From assembly GCA_017532045.1 (NCBI GenBank), contig JAFXJW010000055.1:1-38555 (forward strand): DNA of 38,555 nucleotides. The letters run 5' to 3'. Positions 4,332-35,895 of this stretch are shown here, in pieces. The DNA is from Clostridia bacterium (GTDB taxonomy: Bacteria > Bacillota > Clostridia > Oscillospirales > CAG-272). The notes below the pieces were generated by a model. The model was not told where the DNA came from. It ran no database searches and was given only the letters and a program-made list of their open reading frames with translations. A program made the position numbers and the translations under genes. Within the stretch, counting starts at the first letter, position 1, and the number at the start of each line of letters is the position of its first letter.

Positions 4332-6347
4332 ATGCCTACAAAATCGGTCAAAATAACCGAAAAAACCACCTCTCTCCGTGATTCCGCCGGCGACGGGACC
4401 CTGCCCGTATCCGAGGCGAAGACTCTTCGCCCCTATCGCCGCGAGCTGGACGAGTTTTTGTTTCACGAGGGCACGGCTCGCTATGCCTACAGCTATCTGG
4501 GCGCCCACGAGGAAATAGGTGGAGACGGGATTGAGCAAATCGTTTTCCGTGTTTGGGCTCCCCATGCCAAAGCCGTTTCGGTGGTCGGCCTTGCCGACGA
4601 CTGGGATCACGGCATTCCCATGATCCGCGCCACGGCAAACGGCATTTTCATGCTGGTGCTGGAGGGGCATCTCGTCCCCGACGGATCGGTATACAAGTAT
4701 CGCATCACCGCCGCCGACGGACAGGTTTATCTCCATGCCGACCCCTACGGACGAGCCATGGAATGCCCCCCGGGAACGGCCACCCGCTTTTTTCGGGAGA
4801 AGTCCTTCGTCTGGCACGACGGAGGCTGGCTGAAGCAGCGCAAGACCCGCGCCGCCGACGGCCGCAAATACCCCATGAACATTTACGAGGTTCACGCAGG
4901 CTCCTGGAAATACGGGCCTGACGGAAGGCCTCTTTCCTACCGAGAGCTGGCGGACGAGCTGGCCCCCTATATCAAGCAGATGGGATTCACCCACGTGGAG
5001 CTGCTCCCCGTCATGGAGCATCCCTTCGGAGGCTCCTGGGGCTATCAGGTCTGCGGCTACTACGCCCCCACCGCCCGCTACGGCGACCCCGAGGATTTCA
5101 AGGCCTTCGTGGACATCATGCACAACGCGGGCATCGGGGTCATTCTGGACTGGGTTCCCGCCCACTTCCCCAAGGACGCCCACGGTCTGTACCGCTTCGA
5201 CGGACAACCCCTGTACGAATACGAAGACCCCACCAGACAGGAAAACCGCGGCTGGGGCACCTGCTGCTTTGACGTAGGCAAGAATGAGGTTATATCCTTC
5301 CTCCTGTCCAACGCCTACTACTGGGTGGAGGAATTCCACGCCGACGGTCTCCGTGTGGACGCCGTGGCCTCCATGCTCTACCTCAACTACGACAGGCAGG
5401 ACGGAGAATGGCATCCGAACCGATACGGCAGCTATGAAAATCTGGAAGCCGTGGCCTTCTTCCGCCTGCTCAACCGAAGTCTGCGGGAGGATCACCCCGA
5501 CGTCATGACCATCGCCGAGGAATCCACCATGTGGCCTCACATTACGGATTTCACCGAAAACGGGCTGGGATTCACCTACAAGTGGAACATGGGCTGGATG
5601 AACGATACCCTCCGCTACGTAAAGGAGGATCCCATCTTCCGCAAGCACCTCCACGGACACCTCACCCACATCCCCTCCTACGCCTTCATTGAAAAGTACG
5701 TCCTCCCCATCTCCCACGACGAGGTGGTGCATCTCAAAAAATCCTTCCTGGACAAGATGCCCGGGGACTACTGGCAGAAATTCGCAGGAGCGAGAGCCTT
5801 TGCCGCCTGGATGATGACCCACCCCGGCGCCAAGCTCTGGTTCATGGGCTGTGAGATCGGTCAGTTCGCCGAGTGGAGCGAGGAGCGGGAGCTGGATTGG
5901 TACCTTCTGGACTACGAATACCACGCCAAGCTCCAGCACTACTTCGCCGCCCTGAACAACCTCTACCTCACCACCCCTGCCCTGTGGGACGAGTACACCG
6001 ACACCCCCGAAAAGTCCTTTGAGTGGCTGGAATCCCACAACGCCGAGCAGAGCATTATCGCCTACCGCCGTATCTCCCGCGAGGGGCGGGACGTAACAGT
6101 TATCCTCAATTTCACCCCCGTGGCCCACGTGGATCACAACATCAACGTTCCCCTGCCCGGAAGCTATCGGGAGATCTTCAACTCCGACGACCATCGCTTC
6201 GGCGGCAGCGGGGTGCTGAACACCGGCATCATGGAGGCCTTCCCCGTGGAGGGCAACTTCCTCCACCGCGTACGGGTCAACGTTCCCCCCATGGGTGTGA
6301 CGATACTGGAGAGAGTAGACGATAAGAACGAGGGGCTCTGCCCCTGA
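4332..6347 (+). CDS. glgB: 1,4-alpha-glucan branching enzyme
   Basis: GH13 branching-enzyme motifs: GFTHVELLPVMEHP, ILDWVPAHFPKD, GLRVDAVASMLY, IAEESTMWP, LPISHDEVVH. The start is taken downstream of the promoter at 4263-4291. The last five codons and the stop lie in a repeat-module hairpin. Confidence 0.9.
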   Translation: MPTKSVKITEKTTSLRDSAGDGTLPVSEAKTLRPYRRELDEFLFHEGTARYAYSYLGAHEEIGGDGIEQIVFRVWAPHAKAVSVVGLADDWDHGIPMIRATANGIFMLVLEGHLVPDGSVYKYRITAADGQVYLHADPYGRAMECPPGTATRFFREKSFVWHDGGWLKQRKTRAADGRKYPMNIYEVHAGSWKYGPDGRPLSYRELADELAPYIKQMGFTHVELLPVMEHPFGGSWGYQVCGYYAPTARYGDPEDFKAFVDIMHNAGIGVILDWVPAHFPKDAHGLYRFDGQPLYEYEDPTRQENRGWGTCCFDVGKNEVISFLLSNAYYWVEEFHADGLRVDAVASMLYLNYDRQDGEWHPNRYGSYENLEAVAFFRLLNRSLREDHPDVMTIAEESTMWPHITDFTENGLGFTYKWNMGWMNDTLRYVKEDPIFRKHLHGHLTHIPSYAFIEKYVLPISHDEVVHLKKSFLDKMPGDYWQKFAGARAFAAWMMTHPGAKLWFMGCEIGQFAEWSEERELDWYLLDYEYHAKLQHYFAALNNLYLTTPALWDEYTDTPEKSFEWLESHNAEQSIIAYRRISREGRDVTVILNFTPVAHVDHNINVPLPGSYREIFNSDDHRFGGSGVLNTGIMEAFPVEGNFLHRVRVNVPPMGVTILERVDDKNEGLCP

Positions 6348-8872: not shown

Positions 8873-8918
8873 TACATGCAAAATGCGAAATCGTGTTTTC
8901 ATAGGTTGAAATCATCAT

Positions 8919-9016
8919 CCGTAGGGGAGGGGTTTCCCCTCCCGACACGCGTCCAAAACCTTTGTCATTCAAAGCTTTTTTGCGAATCATCGGGAGGGGA
9001 AACCCCTCCCCTACGG
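8919..9016. repeat. Perfect 27-nt inverted repeat pair, each arm itself a hairpin (GGGGAGGGG type)
   Basis: CCGTAGGGGAGGGGTTTCCCCTCCCGA (8919-8945) and its exact reverse complement TCGGGAGGGGAAACCCCTCCCCTACGG (8990-9016), separated by a 44-nt AT-richer spacer. Confidence 0.85.
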
Positions 9017-9059
9017 AAAAGTAGATTTCTTTTGCAAAAACAAGCAGGGAGATAAAGAA

Positions 9060-11046: not shown

Positions 11047-11072
11047 GGAGCGGGAGAGCGAGTCTCCGACGG

Positions 11073-11124
11073 CTTAAGAGCCCTTTTGAAAAAGGGTTCT
11101 TAAGAATCTCCTAAAACTTTCAAA
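11073..11124. repeat. Partial mosaic hairpin repeat, copy R1
   Basis: CTTAAGAGCCCTTTT-GA-AAAAGGGTTCTTAAG (11073-11104), then AATCTCCTAAAACTTTCAAAAAG. This aligns with 19674-19725 of copy R4. Confidence 0.7.
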
Positions 11125-11161
11125 AAGAAAACCTACCGACGAAAATCGGTAGGTTTTTTTG
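11125..11161. terminator. Bidirectional rho-independent terminator between convergent glgA and the GH13 gene
   Basis: AACCTACCGA (11130-11139) / TCGGTAGGTT (11146-11155), flanked by an A-run and a T7 run. Confidence 0.85.
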
Positions 11162-13177: not shown

Positions 13178-13389
13178 ATGCAGGGGCTTCACCCCTGCAC
13201 CCCACCTAAACCCTTTTTGCAAAACCTCCTCGCTTTGCTCGGGGCAAATTCGTCTGCGACGAAGTTTGCGAGGGTTTAGGAATCCCAAAAACCTTTAAAC
13301 AACAATGCTTTAAAAGGTTTTGGGGGTCAAGGCCCTTTTCTCAAAAGGGCTTTGCGGGGAGTGGGGCAGAGCCCCACAAACCCCAATTT
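13178..13389. repeat. Mosaic hairpin repeat, copy R2 (module order A-B(core)-C-D-E-terminal motif)
   Basis: Module A: GCAGGGGCTTCACCCCTGC at 13180-13198. Module B: arms CTAAACCCT (13206-13214) / AGGGTTTAG (13271-13279) around the 55-nt core. Module C: CCCAAAAACCTTTAAA...TTTAAAAGGTTTTGGGGG at 13284-13326. Module D: GCCCTTTTCTCAAAAGGGC at 13332-13350. Module E: GTGGGGCAGAGCCCCAC at 13361-13377. Terminal motif: AAACCCCAATTT at 13378-13389. Confidence 0.9.
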
Positions 13390-13400
13390 ATTTCCCCCAC

Positions 13401-13429
13401 ATTATATCATAAAACCCATGTTCTGTCAA
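13401..13429 (-). promoter_or_regulatory. Consensus SigA promoter upstream of repeat R2 and the GH13 gene
   Basis: Minus strand reads TTGACA (13429-13424), exactly 17 nt, TATAAT (13406-13401). The predicted TSS near 13394 places all of R2 in a leader of about 250 nt. Confidence 0.6.
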
Positions 13430-15934: not shown

Positions 15935-16023
15935 ATCGGTTATCACTTTCTTAGATTGGTTTCGATGGATATACATATTATTTGTTGGCAGGAGAAATTT
16001 TATGTGTAATGGGGGAGCATGTC

Positions 16024-16229
16024 GCAGGGGTTTCACCCCTGCACCCCACCTAAACCCTTTTTGAAAAAAGGGTTTAGGAATCCCAAAAACGTTTAACAAA
16101 TATATTTTTTAAAGGTTTTTGAGATTCCAAAGAACTTCGCAAACTTTGCCGCAGGCAAATTTGCCCCGAGCGAAGCGAGGAGGTTTGCCAAAAAGTTCTT
16201 TGGTGGGGGTGTGAGGGCAAAGCCCCCAC
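16024..16229. repeat. Mosaic hairpin repeat, copy R3 (A - empty B - C - filled B with inverted core - E)
   Basis: Module A: GCAGGGGTTTCACCCCTGC at 16024-16042. Empty B: perfect palindrome TAAACCCTTTTTGAAAAAAGGGTTTA at 16051-16076. Module C hairpin: 16082-16122. Filled B: arms CCAAAGAACT (16127-16136) / AGTTCTTTGG (16194-16203) around the core at 16137-16190. Module E: GTGAGGGCAAAGCCCCCAC at 16211-16229. Confidence 0.9.
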
Positions 16230-16230
16230 T

Positions 16231-16239
16231 ATTATAGCA
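16231..16239 (-). promoter_or_regulatory. Candidate extended -10 promoter (TGCTATAAT) that would drive glgP through repeat R3
   Basis: Minus strand reads GGTGCTATAATAG. The TATAAT at 16236-16231 overlaps the stop codon of the upstream ABC ATPase gene. The -35 is poor (CCGGAC). Confidence 0.35.
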
Positions 16240-19097: not shown

Positions 19098-19634
19098 ATG
19101 TTCATTTACTCCTTCAAAGCCAGCAGCATCAAGTTTTTTGGGATCCTTTGCGTTGCCTTAGCGGCGCTCATTGCCCTCATTGCCTTTGTGCCCGCTTATG
19201 CGGGCGAGCAGAATACGGGCGGCGGGAACAGCGGTGGGGTAGCAGTGGATGCCCCCGAGGCAGAATCCGGCGTGACGGTATCGGTGCGCTACGACAAGGT
19301 CACGACCGCCGACGATGCGGCGGGCTTCCTCTCCCAGTTCGGCTGGGTGGTGGATGCCGGATCGGTGGAGACCAAGGAGGTCACCATTCCCGCCCAGTTC
19401 GACAAGGTGTTCGCCGGCTACAACGAGATGCAGAAGTCTCAGGGACTGGATCTGTCCAAATACAAGAAAAAGGGCGTCACCCGCTACACCTTCACCGTCA
19501 CCAACTACAAGGGGTATGAGGGAGCCGTGTACGCCAACGTGCTGACCTACCGCGGCCGTGTCATCGGCGGGGACATCTGCTCGGCAGACGTGAGCGGCTT
19601 CATCCACGGGTTTGAAAAGCCTGCGGGGGAATGA
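19098..19634 (+). CDS. Hypothetical membrane-anchored protein, DUF4830-like
   Basis: ATG with a GGAGG RBS (19086-19090), an N-terminal TM anchor FFGILCVALAALIALIAFV, and a C-terminal domain (FLSQFGWVVD ... YNEMQKSQGLDLSKYKKKGVTRYTF ... GGDICSADVSGFIHGF) that resembles DUF4830 by recall. An alternative TTG start at 19011 also has an AAGGAG RBS. Confidence 0.55.
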   Translation: MFIYSFKASSIKFFGILCVALAALIALIAFVPAYAGEQNTGGGNSGGVAVDAPEAESGVTVSVRYDKVTTADDAAGFLSQFGWVVDAGSVETKEVTIPAQFDKVFAGYNEMQKSQGLDLSKYKKKGVTRYTFTVTNYKGYEGAVYANVLTYRGRVIGGDICSADVSGFIHGFEKPAGE

Positions 19635-19877
19635 AATTGGGGTTTGTGGGGGCTCTGCCCCCACCCCCCGCAAGGCCCTTTTGAAAAAAGTTCTTTGGAA
19701 TCTCCCAAAACTTTTGAAAACCATTGTAAAACAAGAATGTTTTAAAGGTTCTTGGGATTCTTAAACCCTCGCAAACTTTGCCGTAGGCGAATTTGCCCCG
19801 AGCAAAGCGAGGAGGTCTTGCAAGAAGGGTTTAAGTGGGGTGCAGGGGTGAAACCCCTGCCCGACAAACCCAAATTT
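19634..19877. repeat. Mosaic hairpin repeat, copy R4: full-length element with terminal inverted repeats (order E-C-B(core)-A, inverted relative to R2)
   Basis: Terminal inverted repeats: AAATTGGGGTTTGT (19634-19647) and ACAAACCCAAATTT (19864-19877). Module E: GTGGGGGCTCTGCCCCCAC at 19646-19664. Module B: arms CTTAAACCCT (19760-19769) / AGGGTTTAAG (19826-19835) around the core. Module A: GCAGGGGTGAAACCCCTGC at 19842-19860. Confidence 0.9.
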
Positions 19878-19907
19878 GAAACGATTATTCAGGATTGGAG
19901 AAAGAAA

Positions 19908-23423: not shown

Positions 23424-23473
23424 AATTGTGTTCCTTTTCAGGGTGTTTTTAGAGTATAGGCTATTTGGTTGCT

Positions 23474-23546
23474 GAAAAGATTTTGGAGATTCCAAAGAAC
23501 CTTTTGAAAAAGGTTCTTTGGTGGGTGCAGGGCAACGCCCTGCATC
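23474..23546. repeat. Mosaic hairpin repeat, copy R5 (short; empty B hairpin plus A/E-type hairpin) in the metY-metA intercistronic spacer
   Basis: Perfect 30-nt palindrome CCAAAGAACCTTTTGAAAAAGGTTCTTTGG (23492-23521), then TGCAGGGC-AAC-GCCCTGCA (23526-23544). Same arms as the filled hairpin at 16127-16203. Confidence 0.85.
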
Positions 23547-24862: not shown

Positions 24863-25186
24863 TTCAAATTTGGGTTTATCGAGGAAGTCTCCCTGTACCC
24901 CGTTCCCCCAAGATGAAGGACGAAGCCCTTCATTAAGAGAAGTGGCCGGGGGTATTGGGGGCGGCCGTGAGCGCCCCAATGCGCGGCGGAAGCCGCAAGA
25001 AGGTTTTCGATAAACTTCCTTTTGTGGAAAAGAAAATTCCAGTTTTGACTCGTAAAGTTTCTTGCACCTGCCGGTGCGCGTCAGGGTGCTCAAGGCCGCC
25101 CCCGACACCCCAGGCCTCCTACTTTTTCTTTGCAGGGGCTTCGCCCCTGCACCCTGTTACAGAGGAAACCCAACTCCTCGATAAAC
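24863..25186. repeat. Variant mosaic hairpin repeat, copy R6 (about 320 bp)
   Basis: Terminal-motif copy TTCAAATTTGGGTTTAT at 24863-24879. Hairpins: ATGAAGG/CCTTCAT at 24913-24933; ATTGGGGGCG/CGCCCCAAT at 24954-24980; GCGGC-GGAA-GCCGC at 24983-24996; module A GCAGGGGCTTCGCCCCTGC at 25132-25150. The motif TCGATAAAC or its complement occurs at 24874-24882, 25007-25015 and 25178-25186. Confidence 0.75.
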
Positions 25187-34156: not shown

Positions 34157-34220
34157 ATACCGACCTCCCAAAATGGTTTCGATAATCAGTATATGAAAGG
34201 GCGCAGGGAGGAGTGAGGGG

Positions 34221-34435
34221 TTCAAATTGGGGTTTATAGGGCCGAAGGCCCTCTCGCCCCCACTTAAACCCTTCTTGCAAGACCTCCTCGCTTTGCTCGG
34301 GGCAAATTCGCCTACGGCAAAGTTTGCGAGGGTTTAAGAATCCCAAGACCCTTCAAAAAACATTGATGAGCCAATAACAATTTGTTAAAGGTTTTTGGGG
34401 AGTCCAGAGGGGCTTTTTGCAAAAAGCCCCTTTGG
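34221..34435. repeat. Mosaic hairpin repeat, copy R7 (terminal motif - E - B(core) - C - D)
   Basis: Terminal motif: TTCAAATTGGGGTTTAT at 34221-34237. Module E: AGGGCC-GA-AGGCCCT at 34238-34252. Module B: arms CTTAAACCCT (34263-34272) / AGGGTTTAAG (34329-34338). Module D: AGGGGCTTTTTGCAAAAAGCCCCT at 34408-34431. The segment 34258-34347 is the exact reverse complement of 19751-19840. Confidence 0.9.
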
Positions 34436-34469
34436 CCGTTCTCCATATATATCCCTCGAAAGGCGCCAT

Positions 34470-34512: not shown

Positions 34513-35706
34513 TTACAGAAGCTCTGCCTTGAGGGTCTCGGCCAGATCGGTCTGCTCCCAAGGCGCATTCAGATCCTCACGACCCATGTGACCGTAAGCG
34601 GCCAGATCGCAATAGATGGGACGGCGAAGGTCGAATCTCTTAATGATAGCAGCGGGACGGAGATCCACGTGCTTCAGAACGGCCTCCTGAATGGCGGCCT
34701 CGGAGACCTTGGCGGTACCGAAGGTGTCCACCAGGACGGAGACGGGCTTGGCCACGCCGATGGCGTAGGCGACCTGTACCTCGCAATGGTCGGCCAGACC
34801 GGCGGCCACCACGTTCTTGGCGATGTAACGGGCGGCGTAGGAGGCGGAGCGATCCACCTTGGTGGGATCCTTACCCGAGAAAGCACCGCCGCCGTGACGG
34901 GCGTAGCCGCCGTAGGTGTCCACGATGATCTTGCGTCCCGTCAGACCCGTATCACCGGCAGGGCCGCCAATGACGAACCGACCCGTGGGGTTCACGAAGA
35001 ACTTAGTGTTCTCATCCAGCAGATGGGCAGGGACGATGGGACGGATGACCTTCTCGATCATGTCCTCGCGGATGGTCTCCAGCGTGACCTCAACAGAGTG
35101 CTGGGTGGATACCACCACGGTGTCCACACGGACAGGCTTACCCTCCACGTACTCCACGGTGACCTGGGTCTTACCGTCGGGACGGAGGTAGTCCAGCTCG
35201 CCGCTCTTGCGCACCTCGCTGAGGCGCTTGGCCATCTTATGGGCCAGAGAAATGGGCAGGGGCATCCGCTCCGGGGTCTCGTTGCAGGCGTAGCCGAACA
35301 TGAGGCCCTGATCGCCGGCGCCGATGTCCAGACCGTCGTCGGTGGTTCCCTCCTTGGCCTCCAGAGACTTGTCCACGCCCATGGCGATGTCGGGGGACTG
35401 CTCGTGAATGGAGGAAATGACGGCGCAGCTATCGCAATCAAAGCCGAATTTGGCGCGGGTGTAACCGATCTCACGGACGGTCTCACGGACGATCTTCTGG
35501 ATATCCACGTAGGCGGTGGTGGTGATCTCACCCATGATGGCCACAAGGCCCGTGGTGCAAAAGGTCTCACAGGCTACACGGGACATGGGATCCTGGCGAA
35601 GCAGCTCGTCCAGAATGGCGTCGGAGATCTTGTCGGAAATTTTGTCGGGGTGACCCTCGGTCACGGATTCGCTGGTAAACAGCACGGAACGGTTGTCGTT
35701 GATCAT
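34513..35706 (-). CDS. metK: S-adenosylmethionine synthetase
   Basis: [33 protein letters not shown]. 397 aa. Confidence 0.95.
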
Positions 35707-35784: not shown

Positions 35785-35795
35785 TTCGTCTGACT

Positions 35796-35880
35796 CTCAT
35801 CAAGCAGGTATTGGCACCTTACCCCACGGGGCAGGTTGTCGTGACTTCACAGGGCCTGTCCCTCCGTCACTCTTGATAAG
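35796..35880 (-). promoter_or_regulatory. SAM-I (S-box) riboswitch aptamer
   Basis: Minus strand reads CTTATCAAGAGTGACGGAGGGACAGGCCCTGTGAAGTCACGACAACCTGCCCCGTGGGGTAAGGTGCCAATACCTGCTTGATGAG. This matches the S-box hallmarks: CTTATCAAGAG, GGAGGGA, GGCCC, GTGAAG, CAACC, GGTGCCAA and closure of P1. It lies upstream of metK, as is common in Firmicutes. Confidence 0.9.
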
Positions 35881-35895
35881 CGATTTACTTCTTTT

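Follow-up and report, generated by a model that had tools for sequence, protein, structure and literature searches.

How does a short sequence come to lie in the loop of a palindromic hairpin at several places on one chromosome, when the same hairpins also occur without it, and in what form would it be folded? The locus at 13206-13279 raises this question in the window, by which we mean the whole stretch of DNA that was analyzed (38,555 nt, a ~39-kb window). On balance, this locus probably represents one copy of a 46-nt module that is optional within a mosaic intergenic repeat of an uncultured, Ruminococcaceae-like gut bacterium of the Clostridia; the repeat resembles the REP/BIME or Correia elements and would be processed as single-stranded DNA.

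The window is a bacterial chromosome segment of 57% GC that carries housekeeping genes. The proteins nearest to those of the window genes come from metagenome-assembled genomes (MAGs) labeled 'Ruminococcaceae / Clostridia bacterium', and the window sequence is present in animal and bovine gut metagenomes. The gene content is as follows:

Metabolic genes: glgB/C/D/A, alpha-amylase, glgP, amino-acid ABC transporter, cdd, pyrimidine-nucleoside phosphorylase, metA/metY
Further genes: LRR protein, RNase Y, mreB, recD2, metK behind a SAM riboswitch, ECF transporter, tuf

No transposase, Y1/RAYT or other mobile-element gene was found among the genes of the ~39-kb window, and the genes neighboring the copies of the repeated sequence are functionally unrelated to each other.

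The repeated unit is 46 nt long

The preliminary description reported four copies of a 55-nt core. All four were found in the sequence, but the discrete unit is 46 nt long (sense strand CGCAAACTTYGYCGYAGRCRAATTTGCCCCGAGCRAAGCGAGGAGG, CGCAAAC...GAGGAGG), and the adjoining TTTGC that had been counted with it is part of the loop of the host repeat. The copies in the window are as follows:

13225-13270, minus strand, 46-nt unit copy A, with a private T-A pair in hairpin 1
16138-16183, plus strand, 46-nt unit copy B
19770-19815, plus strand, 46-nt unit copy C, in which hairpin 1 of the sense strand has a T.G wobble
34283-34328, minus strand, 46-nt unit copy D, identical to copy C

The unit contains two hairpins, at unit nucleotides 2-27 (hairpin 1) and 29-43 (hairpin 2). 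Hairpin 1 is an 11-bp stem with one bulged C (GCAAAcTTYGYC-GYA-GRCRAATTTGC), and this stem is recovered by the DNA folds of copies A and B and by the RNA folds of copy C and of L002, one of the extra copies introduced below. The 6-bp inner hairpin noticed earlier does exist in its variants TTTGCC/GGCAAA, TTTGCC/GGCGAA and TTCGTC/GACGAA, but it is only the tip of this longer, bulged stem. Hairpin 2 (CCGAGCRAAGCGAGG, CC-GA-GC-RAA-GC-GA-GG) is purine-rich, with a symmetric tandem G.A internal loop and an RAA loop, and is followed by AGG. Hairpin 2 and the GAGGAGG tract are essentially invariant, whereas hairpin 1 drifts in sequence with its pairing kept. The two ends of the unit (CGCAAAC... and ...GAGGAGG) are not inverted repeats of each other. 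Its junctions with the host sequence are T|C and G|T, and the left flanks CCCT, ACTT and CCTT have only Y-T in common.

An exact 51-mer gave one match with 0 expected by chance, and the other three copies are 90-94% identical to it. A search of genome contigs with a 23-nt core pattern returned two real extra copies, both in one Eubacteriales MAG (L002 and L003), and one chance match in coding sequence. Copy A is also present, filled and identical, in a contig from another sample (L131). Among the matches listed for a 19-mer (18 specified bases) in metagenome contigs there was no true copy, the chance matches lying in soil and sediment contigs. Viral contigs yielded no unit core and a single mini-form of the host repeat, on one IMG/VR phage contig. 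Neither BLAST searches of plasmids and phages with the element nor a protein database search with its joined open-frame translations gave a match. Furthermore, ~200 kb of sequence from relatives identified through glgP, cdd and MetK (84-99% protein identity) contained arm fragments and no additional cores.

The host repeat consists of arms and composites

The unit resides in a larger repeat, here called the arm (~75/121 nt), which occurs singly or as inverted pairs. From the inside outward, an arm consists of one half of an AT-rich inverted repeat (AAAGGTTTTTGGGATTCC), a palindromic clamp whose loop reads T5-G/C-A5, and GTGG followed by a GC-rich, REP-like hairpin (for example, GGTGGGGTGCAGGGGTGAAACCCCTGC). 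The site of the unit within the arm is fixed, between the 5' clamp arm and the T-run. Two inverted arms make a composite of 200-250 nt. The elements of the family are as follows:

13180-13400, minus strand, composite A, in the 5' UTR of the amylase gene
16020-16229, no strand assigned, composite B, inverted arms P1 (empty) and P2 (filled), between the ABC ATPase gene and glgP
19634-19880, plus strand, composite C, with end motifs AAATTGGGGTTTGT / ACAAACCCAAATTT, between the DUF4830 gene and cdd
34213-34440, minus strand, composite D, downstream of metK
11050-11126 and 23470-23545, single arms in the window; single arms also in L002, L003 and L128
13180, 16024, 19842 and 25132, hairpins of the form GCAGGGG-N3-4-CCCCTGC, with variants at 16204, 23521 and 34338

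In composite A, end motif AAATTGGGGTTTGT is followed by a GC hairpin and an empty clamp, then by the AT-rich inverted repeat, the filled clamp and, last, GTGG and another GC hairpin. The end motifs AAATTGGGGTTTGT and ACAAACCCAAATTT are both present in composite C, one of them in A and in D, and neither in B. Motif AAATTGGGGTTTGT also bounds a different element in contig L127. GTGG precedes the GC-rich hairpin in arms A, B1, B2, C and D, in the arm at 23492, in phage contig L146 and in most metagenome flank consensus sequences; it is absent from L002, L003 and 11050-11073, which have GCCGCCGGAGGC instead. In composite B, the GC hairpin of one side is accompanied by CCAC and that of the opposite side by GTGG, i.e. 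a REP and an inverted REP, and a second doublet of GTAG-REP type lies at 8918-9017. Inverted arm pairs are predicted to fold as a cloverleaf or as a long hairpin; for composite B as single-stranded DNA, the predicted fold is a cloverleaf closed by CCCCACC/GGTGGGG (z = -9.9).

Clamps occur with and without the unit

As had been described, each copy of the unit is enclosed by a palindromic clamp, the sequence of which varies with its pairing kept: three copies have TAAACCCT/AGGGTTTA as their clamp, and the remaining one has CCAAAGAAC/GTTCTTTGG. Both of these clamp types also occur empty at 16051-16076 and 23492-23521, and we found more empty clamps besides. The filled and empty clamps of the window are as follows:

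13205-13280, filled P1 clamp of copy A, CCTAAACCCT ... AGGGTTTAGG around the unit and the loop remainder TTTTGCAAAA
16127-16203, filled P2 clamp of copy B, CCAAAGAAC-TT-(unit)-TTTGCCAAAAA-GTTCTTTGG
19761-19834, filled P1-type clamp of copy C, TTAAACCCT ... AGGGTTTAA
34264-34337, filled P1-type clamp of copy D
16051-16076, empty P1 clamp, TAAACCC-TTTTTGAAAAAA-GGGTTTA, with the same flanks as arm A
23492-23521, empty P2 clamp, CCAAAGAACC-TTTTGAAAAA-GGTTCTTTGG, with flanks GGAGATTCC / TGGGTGCAGGGC of the same type as those of arm B2
11074-11103, empty clamp, TTAAGAGCCC-TTTTGAAAAA-GGGTTCTTAA, empty twin of the filled arms L002 and L003 of the other MAG
13329-13355, 19672-19698 and 34408-34431, further empty clamps

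The empty and filled palindromes might have been unrelated in their flanks, in which case the earlier pairing of 'filled' with 'empty' forms would have had no meaning. Their flanks match. Removal of the 46 nt from arm A leaves TAAACCCT|TTTTGCAAAAAGGGTTTA, a perfect palindrome, and arm A without the unit agrees with the empty arm B1 (16020-16098) at 59 of 61 positions. The filled P2 arm (16104-16232) is matched by an empty twin (23470-23545), and the filled arms of L002 and L003 by empty twins at 11074-11103 of the window and in L128. The same relationship appears in gut metagenomes, two of which (X2 and X4, of the four) contain contigs that join 13224 directly to 13271. This is an exact skip of 46 nt with 0 letters shared across the junction, indicating neither target duplication nor microhomology. 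For the P2 clamp, the metagenomes show skips of 47-52 nt with small variant loops, and a comparable skip was also seen for the L002-type clamp. Three clamp types thus exist both filled and empty, and the identical borders of the block in all three indicate that it is discrete. Altogether the unit was found in at least five different clamp sequences, and between arms the clamps diverge far more than the unit and the outer flanks do. Empty arms outnumber filled arms in three of the four gut metagenome runs.

Paired positions change together

We counted pairing over 9 clamp pairs, 11 hairpin-1 pairs and the 4 Watson-Crick pairs of hairpin 2. In the small sample of five distinct sequences behind this formal count (six assembled copies), 120 of 120 cells are paired, the clamp part of the count being partly circular because the clamp register was chosen by pairing. 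Both partners have changed in ten pairs (eight of the clamp, two of hairpin 1), and a T.G intermediate was seen at one pair. None of 500 shuffles reached the observed pairing, and no slid register came near it. The clamps of L002 and L003 differ by one clean exchange of A-T to G-C. The T.G intermediate persists in copies C and D and in extra metagenome contigs. The two hairpin-1 pairs that had been called doubly compensated have indeed changed on both sides, one of them by way of the T.G wobble of copies C and D.

The metagenomes support this pairing independently. With copy A as reference, the changes 13253 T>C and 13259 A>G occur at equal depth and in near-equal numbers of contigs across the four gut metagenomes, and 13251 C>T tracks 13261 G>A apart from a slight excess, which represents T.G pairs of the sense strand. 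With L002 as reference, the changes at 254 (C>T) and 264 (G>A) are likewise matched. These depth-coupled comparisons use copy A and L002 as their only references; the tables for copy B omit positions that are variable elsewhere. The metagenome difference tables are incomplete, and absence from them was given no weight as evidence.

The proposal that a folded form is kept thus holds up in both data sets, and the view that base pairing is maintained by compensatory change is supported. The covariation does not separate RNA from single-stranded DNA. Of the two strands, only CGCAAAC...GAGGAGG can form the T.G wobble and the tandem G.A pairs, which is weak evidence that this sense strand is the folded one. 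Predicted RNA folds of the copies have z = -3.6 to -5.5, with minimum-free-energy folds that differ between copies, and single-stranded DNA folds have z = -4 to -10.

Variation among strains and orientation of the unit

At orthologous spacers, strains differ by whole or half composites only. L131 and L132 have no composite B in their ABC-glgP spacers, and no target duplication was seen at its insertion point. Composite D is absent downstream of metK in L134 and L135 (MetK 93-95% identical), and L129 has only half of composite C, a single arm, in its DUF4830-cdd spacer. At the site of composite A, L132 and L133 carry an unrelated MITE between the promoter and the ribosome-binding site of the amylase gene. 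Among the orthologous spacers compared, no single locus was filled in one strain and empty in another.

Within the arm, the unit reads outward in six of six assembled copies. Nearly all metagenome flank consensus groups likewise have the half of the inverted repeat upstream of the unit and GGTGGGGTGCAGGG downstream of it; the single group that departs from this, before 16154 in X2, seems to be a partial match by chance. The absolute orientation of the unit in the window is two plus and two minus within 21 kb, with no GC-skew switch. Between copies A and C, 4 of the 46 unit positions differ, and their arm flanks show a similar divergence. Since the clamp is a symmetric palindrome, the constant orientation of the unit fits an optional module better than free insertion. 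We therefore favor a module that travels with the arms and is occasionally gained or lost, and disfavor free insertion. The earlier idea of a nested insertion or precise excision is borne out insofar as filled and empty forms differ by one seamless 46-nt block with matching flanks, but between strains only whole or half composites differ. Insertion or excision of the block itself would be plausible, and is better framed as gain or loss of a module within a mosaic repeat.

Transcription, translation signals and known RNAs

Copy A lies behind the following promoter:

13401-13429, minus strand, consensus sigma-70 promoter (TTGACA-17-TGnTATAAT, 12/12), directly upstream of composite A

This 12/12 promoter is conserved in L131, L132 and L133. 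An archaeal BRE/TATA bidirectional promoter was rejected, the window being bacterial with a SAM riboswitch and sigma-70 promoters. Judged from its position, copy A is certainly placed so that it would be transcribed. Five copies have a known context: A, C, D and L003 have the same sense as the gene downstream of them, and copy B runs antisense to the genes on either side. With copy A in a 5' UTR behind a perfect promoter and four of five copies in sense orientation, an RNA-level role is conceivable.

The preliminary description had assigned to GAGGAGG a Shine-Dalgarno-like or, in the other orientation, anti-Shine-Dalgarno-like role, which the arrangement of the copies does not support. From the end of the unit to the start codon downstream of it there are 80 nt (A), 93 nt (C), 58 nt (D) and ~65 nt (L003), and each of these start codons has its own ribosome-binding site; GAGGAGG is partly buried in hairpin 2, and in copy B the unit is antisense. 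The tract would rather be a piece of a conserved recognition hairpin than a ribosome-binding site.

Several known kinds of structured nucleic acid were compared with the unit. An intrinsic terminator was rejected, as scans found none that matches the clamp or the unit and the T-run lies inside the loop rather than after the stem. A small ribozyme or riboswitch was rejected as well, with no Rfam match at threshold. The Rfam GA-cis RNA (RF02987) scores 16.1 bits for copy A and 12.7 bits for copy B against a gathering threshold of 34.7, and the unit is not a member. The two share a CCGAGC-GNA(A)-GCGAGG hairpin with symmetric GA/GA loops, on the sense strand of copies A and B, whereas the 5' half of the model is unmatched. 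GCGAAGC is a classic ultrastable DNA mini-hairpin. A strict GCGAAGC role was rejected, since three of the six assembled copies (A, C and D) read GCAAAGC. For the 8-mer GCAAAAGC, the closest tabulated variant, no melting transition was reported (PMC13037366). Given both of these observations, the stability of GCGAAGC is probably not the conserved property.

Relation to known intergenic repeats

The family resembles REP/BIME of E. coli and REPIN of Pseudomonas in its sequence organization. All of these consist of GC-rich imperfect palindromes, which carry a GT(A/G)G prefix (in the present family, in many but not all arms), arranged as inverted pairs with long or short linkers, and REP/BIME are likewise intergenic and of high copy number, with modules that vary by locus and base changes that keep complementarity. 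In E. coli, TnpA-REP (a Y1 enzyme) binds folded single-stranded REP and cleaves and rejoins BIME linkers in vitro, and this cleavage and rejoining has been proposed to generate the diversity of BIMEs, which have long or short linkers (PMC3333891). The E. coli enzyme cleaves at C|T, in contrast to the T|C and G|T junctions of the unit, and a C|T lies 1-2 nt upstream. The family differs from REP/BIME as follows: the host is a gut bacterium of the class Clostridia, the linker itself consists of nested palindromes (clamps and, at the center, the AT-rich inverted repeat), what is optional is a block of 46 nt with two hairpins, placed in the loop of a hairpin, the window has no RAYT gene, and the arms of L002 and L003 are without GTGG.

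Correia elements are the closest functional parallel, with long and short isoforms distinguished by an internal block, a position between promoter and gene, and variability among strains. A defined pair of terminal inverted repeats and duplication of a TA target are features of these elements (CREE). The composites described here have no consistent terminal repeats or duplication, and their optional block is nested in a sub-palindrome. In Neisseria, Correia elements (CREE/NEMIS) are ~100-160-bp palindromic repeats, either 153-157 bp with an IHF site or ~105 bp; they often lie between promoter and gene and are transcribed, vary in presence or absence among strains, and are RNase III substrates in mRNA (PMC2649163).

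Insertion sequences that target such repeats are also known. IS1397/ISKpn1 and ISPpu9/ISPpu10 (IS110 family) insert into palindromic intergenic repeats in a site- and orientation-specific manner, and members of the IS110 family do so without target duplication (PMC1525189, PMC12288879). These REP-targeting insertion sequences are kilobase-sized and encode a transposase, whereas the unit is 46 nt long and non-coding. We rejected the unit as a MITE, as it is without terminal inverted repeats and 0 letters are shared at its junction. It has the subterminal hairpins, the lack of terminal inverted repeats and the lack of target duplication that are traits of PATEs derived from IS200/IS605. As an IS200/IS605-derived PATE it was rejected nonetheless, having no fixed tetra- or pentanucleotide on its 5' side and an orientation of two plus and two minus within 21 kb. 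BOX of Streptococcus pneumoniae and ERIC of enterobacteria are modular, structured intergenic repeats whose internal modules vary (boxB; internal insertions of ERIC). They share no sequence similarity with the repeat described here, and their modules are arranged in tandem, not nested in a hairpin loop. The repeat family, although undescribed, belongs to a familiar class of DNA, selfish or structural, and is not a new kind of system.

Explanations for the nested unit

In the reading that we prefer, the optional module of a mosaic repeat, the family would spread and be remodeled as folded single-stranded DNA through an HUH/Y1-type enzyme (RAYT or IS200-like) encoded by the host or by an element. 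By cutting and rejoining the strand within the linker, the enzyme would add the module or take it out and leave no footprint, and selection for the hairpins in the single-stranded intermediate, or in transcripts that carry the module, would explain the covariation. Much of the same evidence could describe a tiny non-autonomous mobile element, a 'nano' PATE of IS200/IS605 type or a passenger of IS110/IS1111 type, which we consider unlikely. Two subterminal hairpins without terminal inverted repeats, the junction without duplication, the occupation of at least five clamps that vary far more than the unit and outer flanks, and the empty twins with near-identical flanks all suit such an element, and insertion sequences that target REP hairpins provide precedents (Tobes & Pareja, PMC1525189; ISPpu9, PMC12288879). 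It would have to insert without terminal repeats or target duplication into the palindrome loop and excise precisely, with the arms as preferred targets, a behavior that we likewise find rather doubtful. A symmetric palindrome should accept it either way around, yet one orientation relative to the arm was found in every case seen. Lagging-strand-biased insertion of IS200/IS605 type is also at odds with two plus and two minus copies without a GC-skew switch. No same-locus polymorphism appeared among the orthologous spacers compared, copies A and C diverge alike in unit (4/46) and arm flanks as if whole arms had been copied, and the window has no transposase. Carried to its extreme, the mobile reading would make the unit the smallest autonomous-in-trans mobile DNA yet described, pasted seamlessly and in fixed polarity by a single-stranded DNA recombinase and removed without a scar, which seems to us improbable. 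It would then be a parasite of a parasite that uses REP/BIME-like repeats as landing pads, a picture with an equally small chance of being right.

Selection might also act on RNA alone. The unit would then be a structured cis-acting RNA of 5' UTRs and intergenic transcripts, its covariation reflecting selection on RNA folding. This is a reading in which we place little confidence, in spite of copy A being sense between the 12/12 promoter and the amylase start codon, of copies C, D and L003 being sense to the downstream gene as well, and of wobble and tandem G.A pairs that form only on the sense strand. The weak resemblance to the Rfam GA-cis hairpin, RNA folds of z = -3.6 to -5.5 and the processing of Correia elements in mRNA by RNase III (PMC2649163) point the same way. 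Candidate roles, each as improbable as the reading itself, would be a protein-binding tandem-GA hairpin, a target of or shield against RNases, or a 5' stabilizer acting through the Shine-Dalgarno-like GAGGAGG. Copy B, however, is antisense to its flanking genes, neighboring genes are unrelated in function, and the unit always sits inside a DNA repeat arm regardless of the genes around it. The distance of GAGGAGG from start codons is 58-93 nt, GA-cis reaches 16 bits against 34.7, minimum-free-energy folds vary among the copies, and no RNA-seq run was found to contain the locus. Finally, the compensatory changes could be a by-product of the palindromes, arising by mismatch correction in hairpins or cruciforms or by copying from arm to arm, with the empty forms left by hairpin-promoted replication slippage. 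All elements are nested palindromes, the clamp variants are perfectly symmetric and the family is DNA-repeat-like, as this account would have it; we nevertheless regard it as very unlikely. The same exact borders recur in three clamp types, slippage is not favored for a 46-nt block without a bounding direct repeat, and the persistent T.G intermediate implies that arms are not instantly homogenized.

Significance and abundance of the family

Mosaic intergenic repeats such as REP/BIME, REPIN, Correia and BOX have been well studied in Proteobacteria and streptococci and hardly at all in the uncultured Clostridia, which predominate in animal guts. The family described here sits in 5' UTRs behind strong promoters; it is nested at three levels with unusual clarity, and its optional module is seamless. 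If these genomes encode a Y1/RAYT-type enzyme, the family would offer a tractable case for the gain and loss of linker modules in such repeats. If, instead, the module proved mobile by itself, it would set a lower size limit for mobile DNA.

In four gut metagenomes, the depth over the repeat is 10-200x that of the unique flanks, indicating tens or more copies per sample. Runs X1, X2, X4 and X5 contain the species at ~4-7x. The family is abundant enough to break metagenome assemblies. Contigs end within the repeats, and one scaffold has its gap inside a repeat.

Small repeats at the amylase 5' UTR and elsewhere in the window

The position in the amylase 5' UTR that is occupied in the window by a composite of paired inverted arms (13180-13400, minus strand) is apparently a hotspot at which small repeats of different kinds occur. 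In two related strains (L132 and L133), whose GlgP is 96% identical, the orthologous site between the amylase promoter and the ribosome-binding site carries an unrelated element:
L132 4990-5170 and L133 4180-4360: element of ~190 nt with inverted ends of GCAAAAT repeats

Further repeats were found elsewhere in the window:
8918-9017: TCCGTAGGGGAGGGGTTTCCCCTCCCGA (28 nt) and its perfect inverted copy, with 44 nt between them
24944-25116: long imperfect inverted repeat with 67-nt arms, 76% complementary
25131-25154: solitary GC hairpin TGCAGGGGCTTCGCCCCTGCACCC

The TCCGTAGGGGAGGGGTTTCCCCTCCCGA unit consists of GTAG and a GC palindrome, and the pair, located in the intergenic region between glgD and the next ORF, has the classic look of a second REP doublet of the REPIN/BIME kind. 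The imperfect inverted repeat lies upstream of metY and adjoins the solitary hairpin, which is of the REP type seen in the arms; neither of these two metY-upstream repeats matched a family in Rfam.

The close relative L127 carries three further repeat families (L127 9620-9900, 12548-12790 and 230-340), namely nested palindromes of the TTCATGCGGC type, an element that shares the ends AAATTGGGGTTT and AAACCCAAAATT with some of the window composites around a different interior, and a palindrome built of GATACAAGATAC repeats.

Arm-like and module-like sequences on other contigs

An IMG/VR viral contig (L146) contains a small arm in the intergenic region that separates a terminase-like gene from its neighbour, and the REP-type arm is therefore present on phage DNA, too:
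L146 4141-4200: mini-arm, CGCC-TTTTTCAAAA-GGCG followed by GTGGGGTGCAGGGGCAAAGCCCCTGC

The module string CCGAGCGAAGCGAGG caps long perfect hairpins, such as CCCCTCTCCC...GGGAGAGAGGGG, in unrelated environmental contigs (L061 and L065 at ~1611-1680, L116 at ~28-90), and hairpins of this kind, with tandem GA and a GAA tip, may recur as a module far outside the arm family. A 24-nt identity to the core (TTGCCCCGAGCGAAGCGAGGAGGT) in two other contigs (L017 218-245 and L103 1702-1729) adjoins a duplicated tRNA 3' end, at a site that looks like the attachment site of an integrative element; the core match beside the tRNA is probably a coincidence.

Assembly breakage and the metK locus

The arm family breaks short-read assemblies: a scaffold gap (run of N) at L128 890-905 lies inside one of the repeat arms, and several contigs terminate within arms (e.g., the metK relative L134 at 4537-4556). 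Its copy number in MAGs will therefore be underestimated.

At the metK locus, a riboswitch lies directly upstream of the gene:
35794-35882, minus strand: SAM-I riboswitch (70 bits)

At 34513-35706 (protein P0121), metK was apparently called as a 597-aa product on the 39,415-nt source contig, and the 397-aa ORF has no gene product on record; this is likely a gene-calling artefact at the locus.
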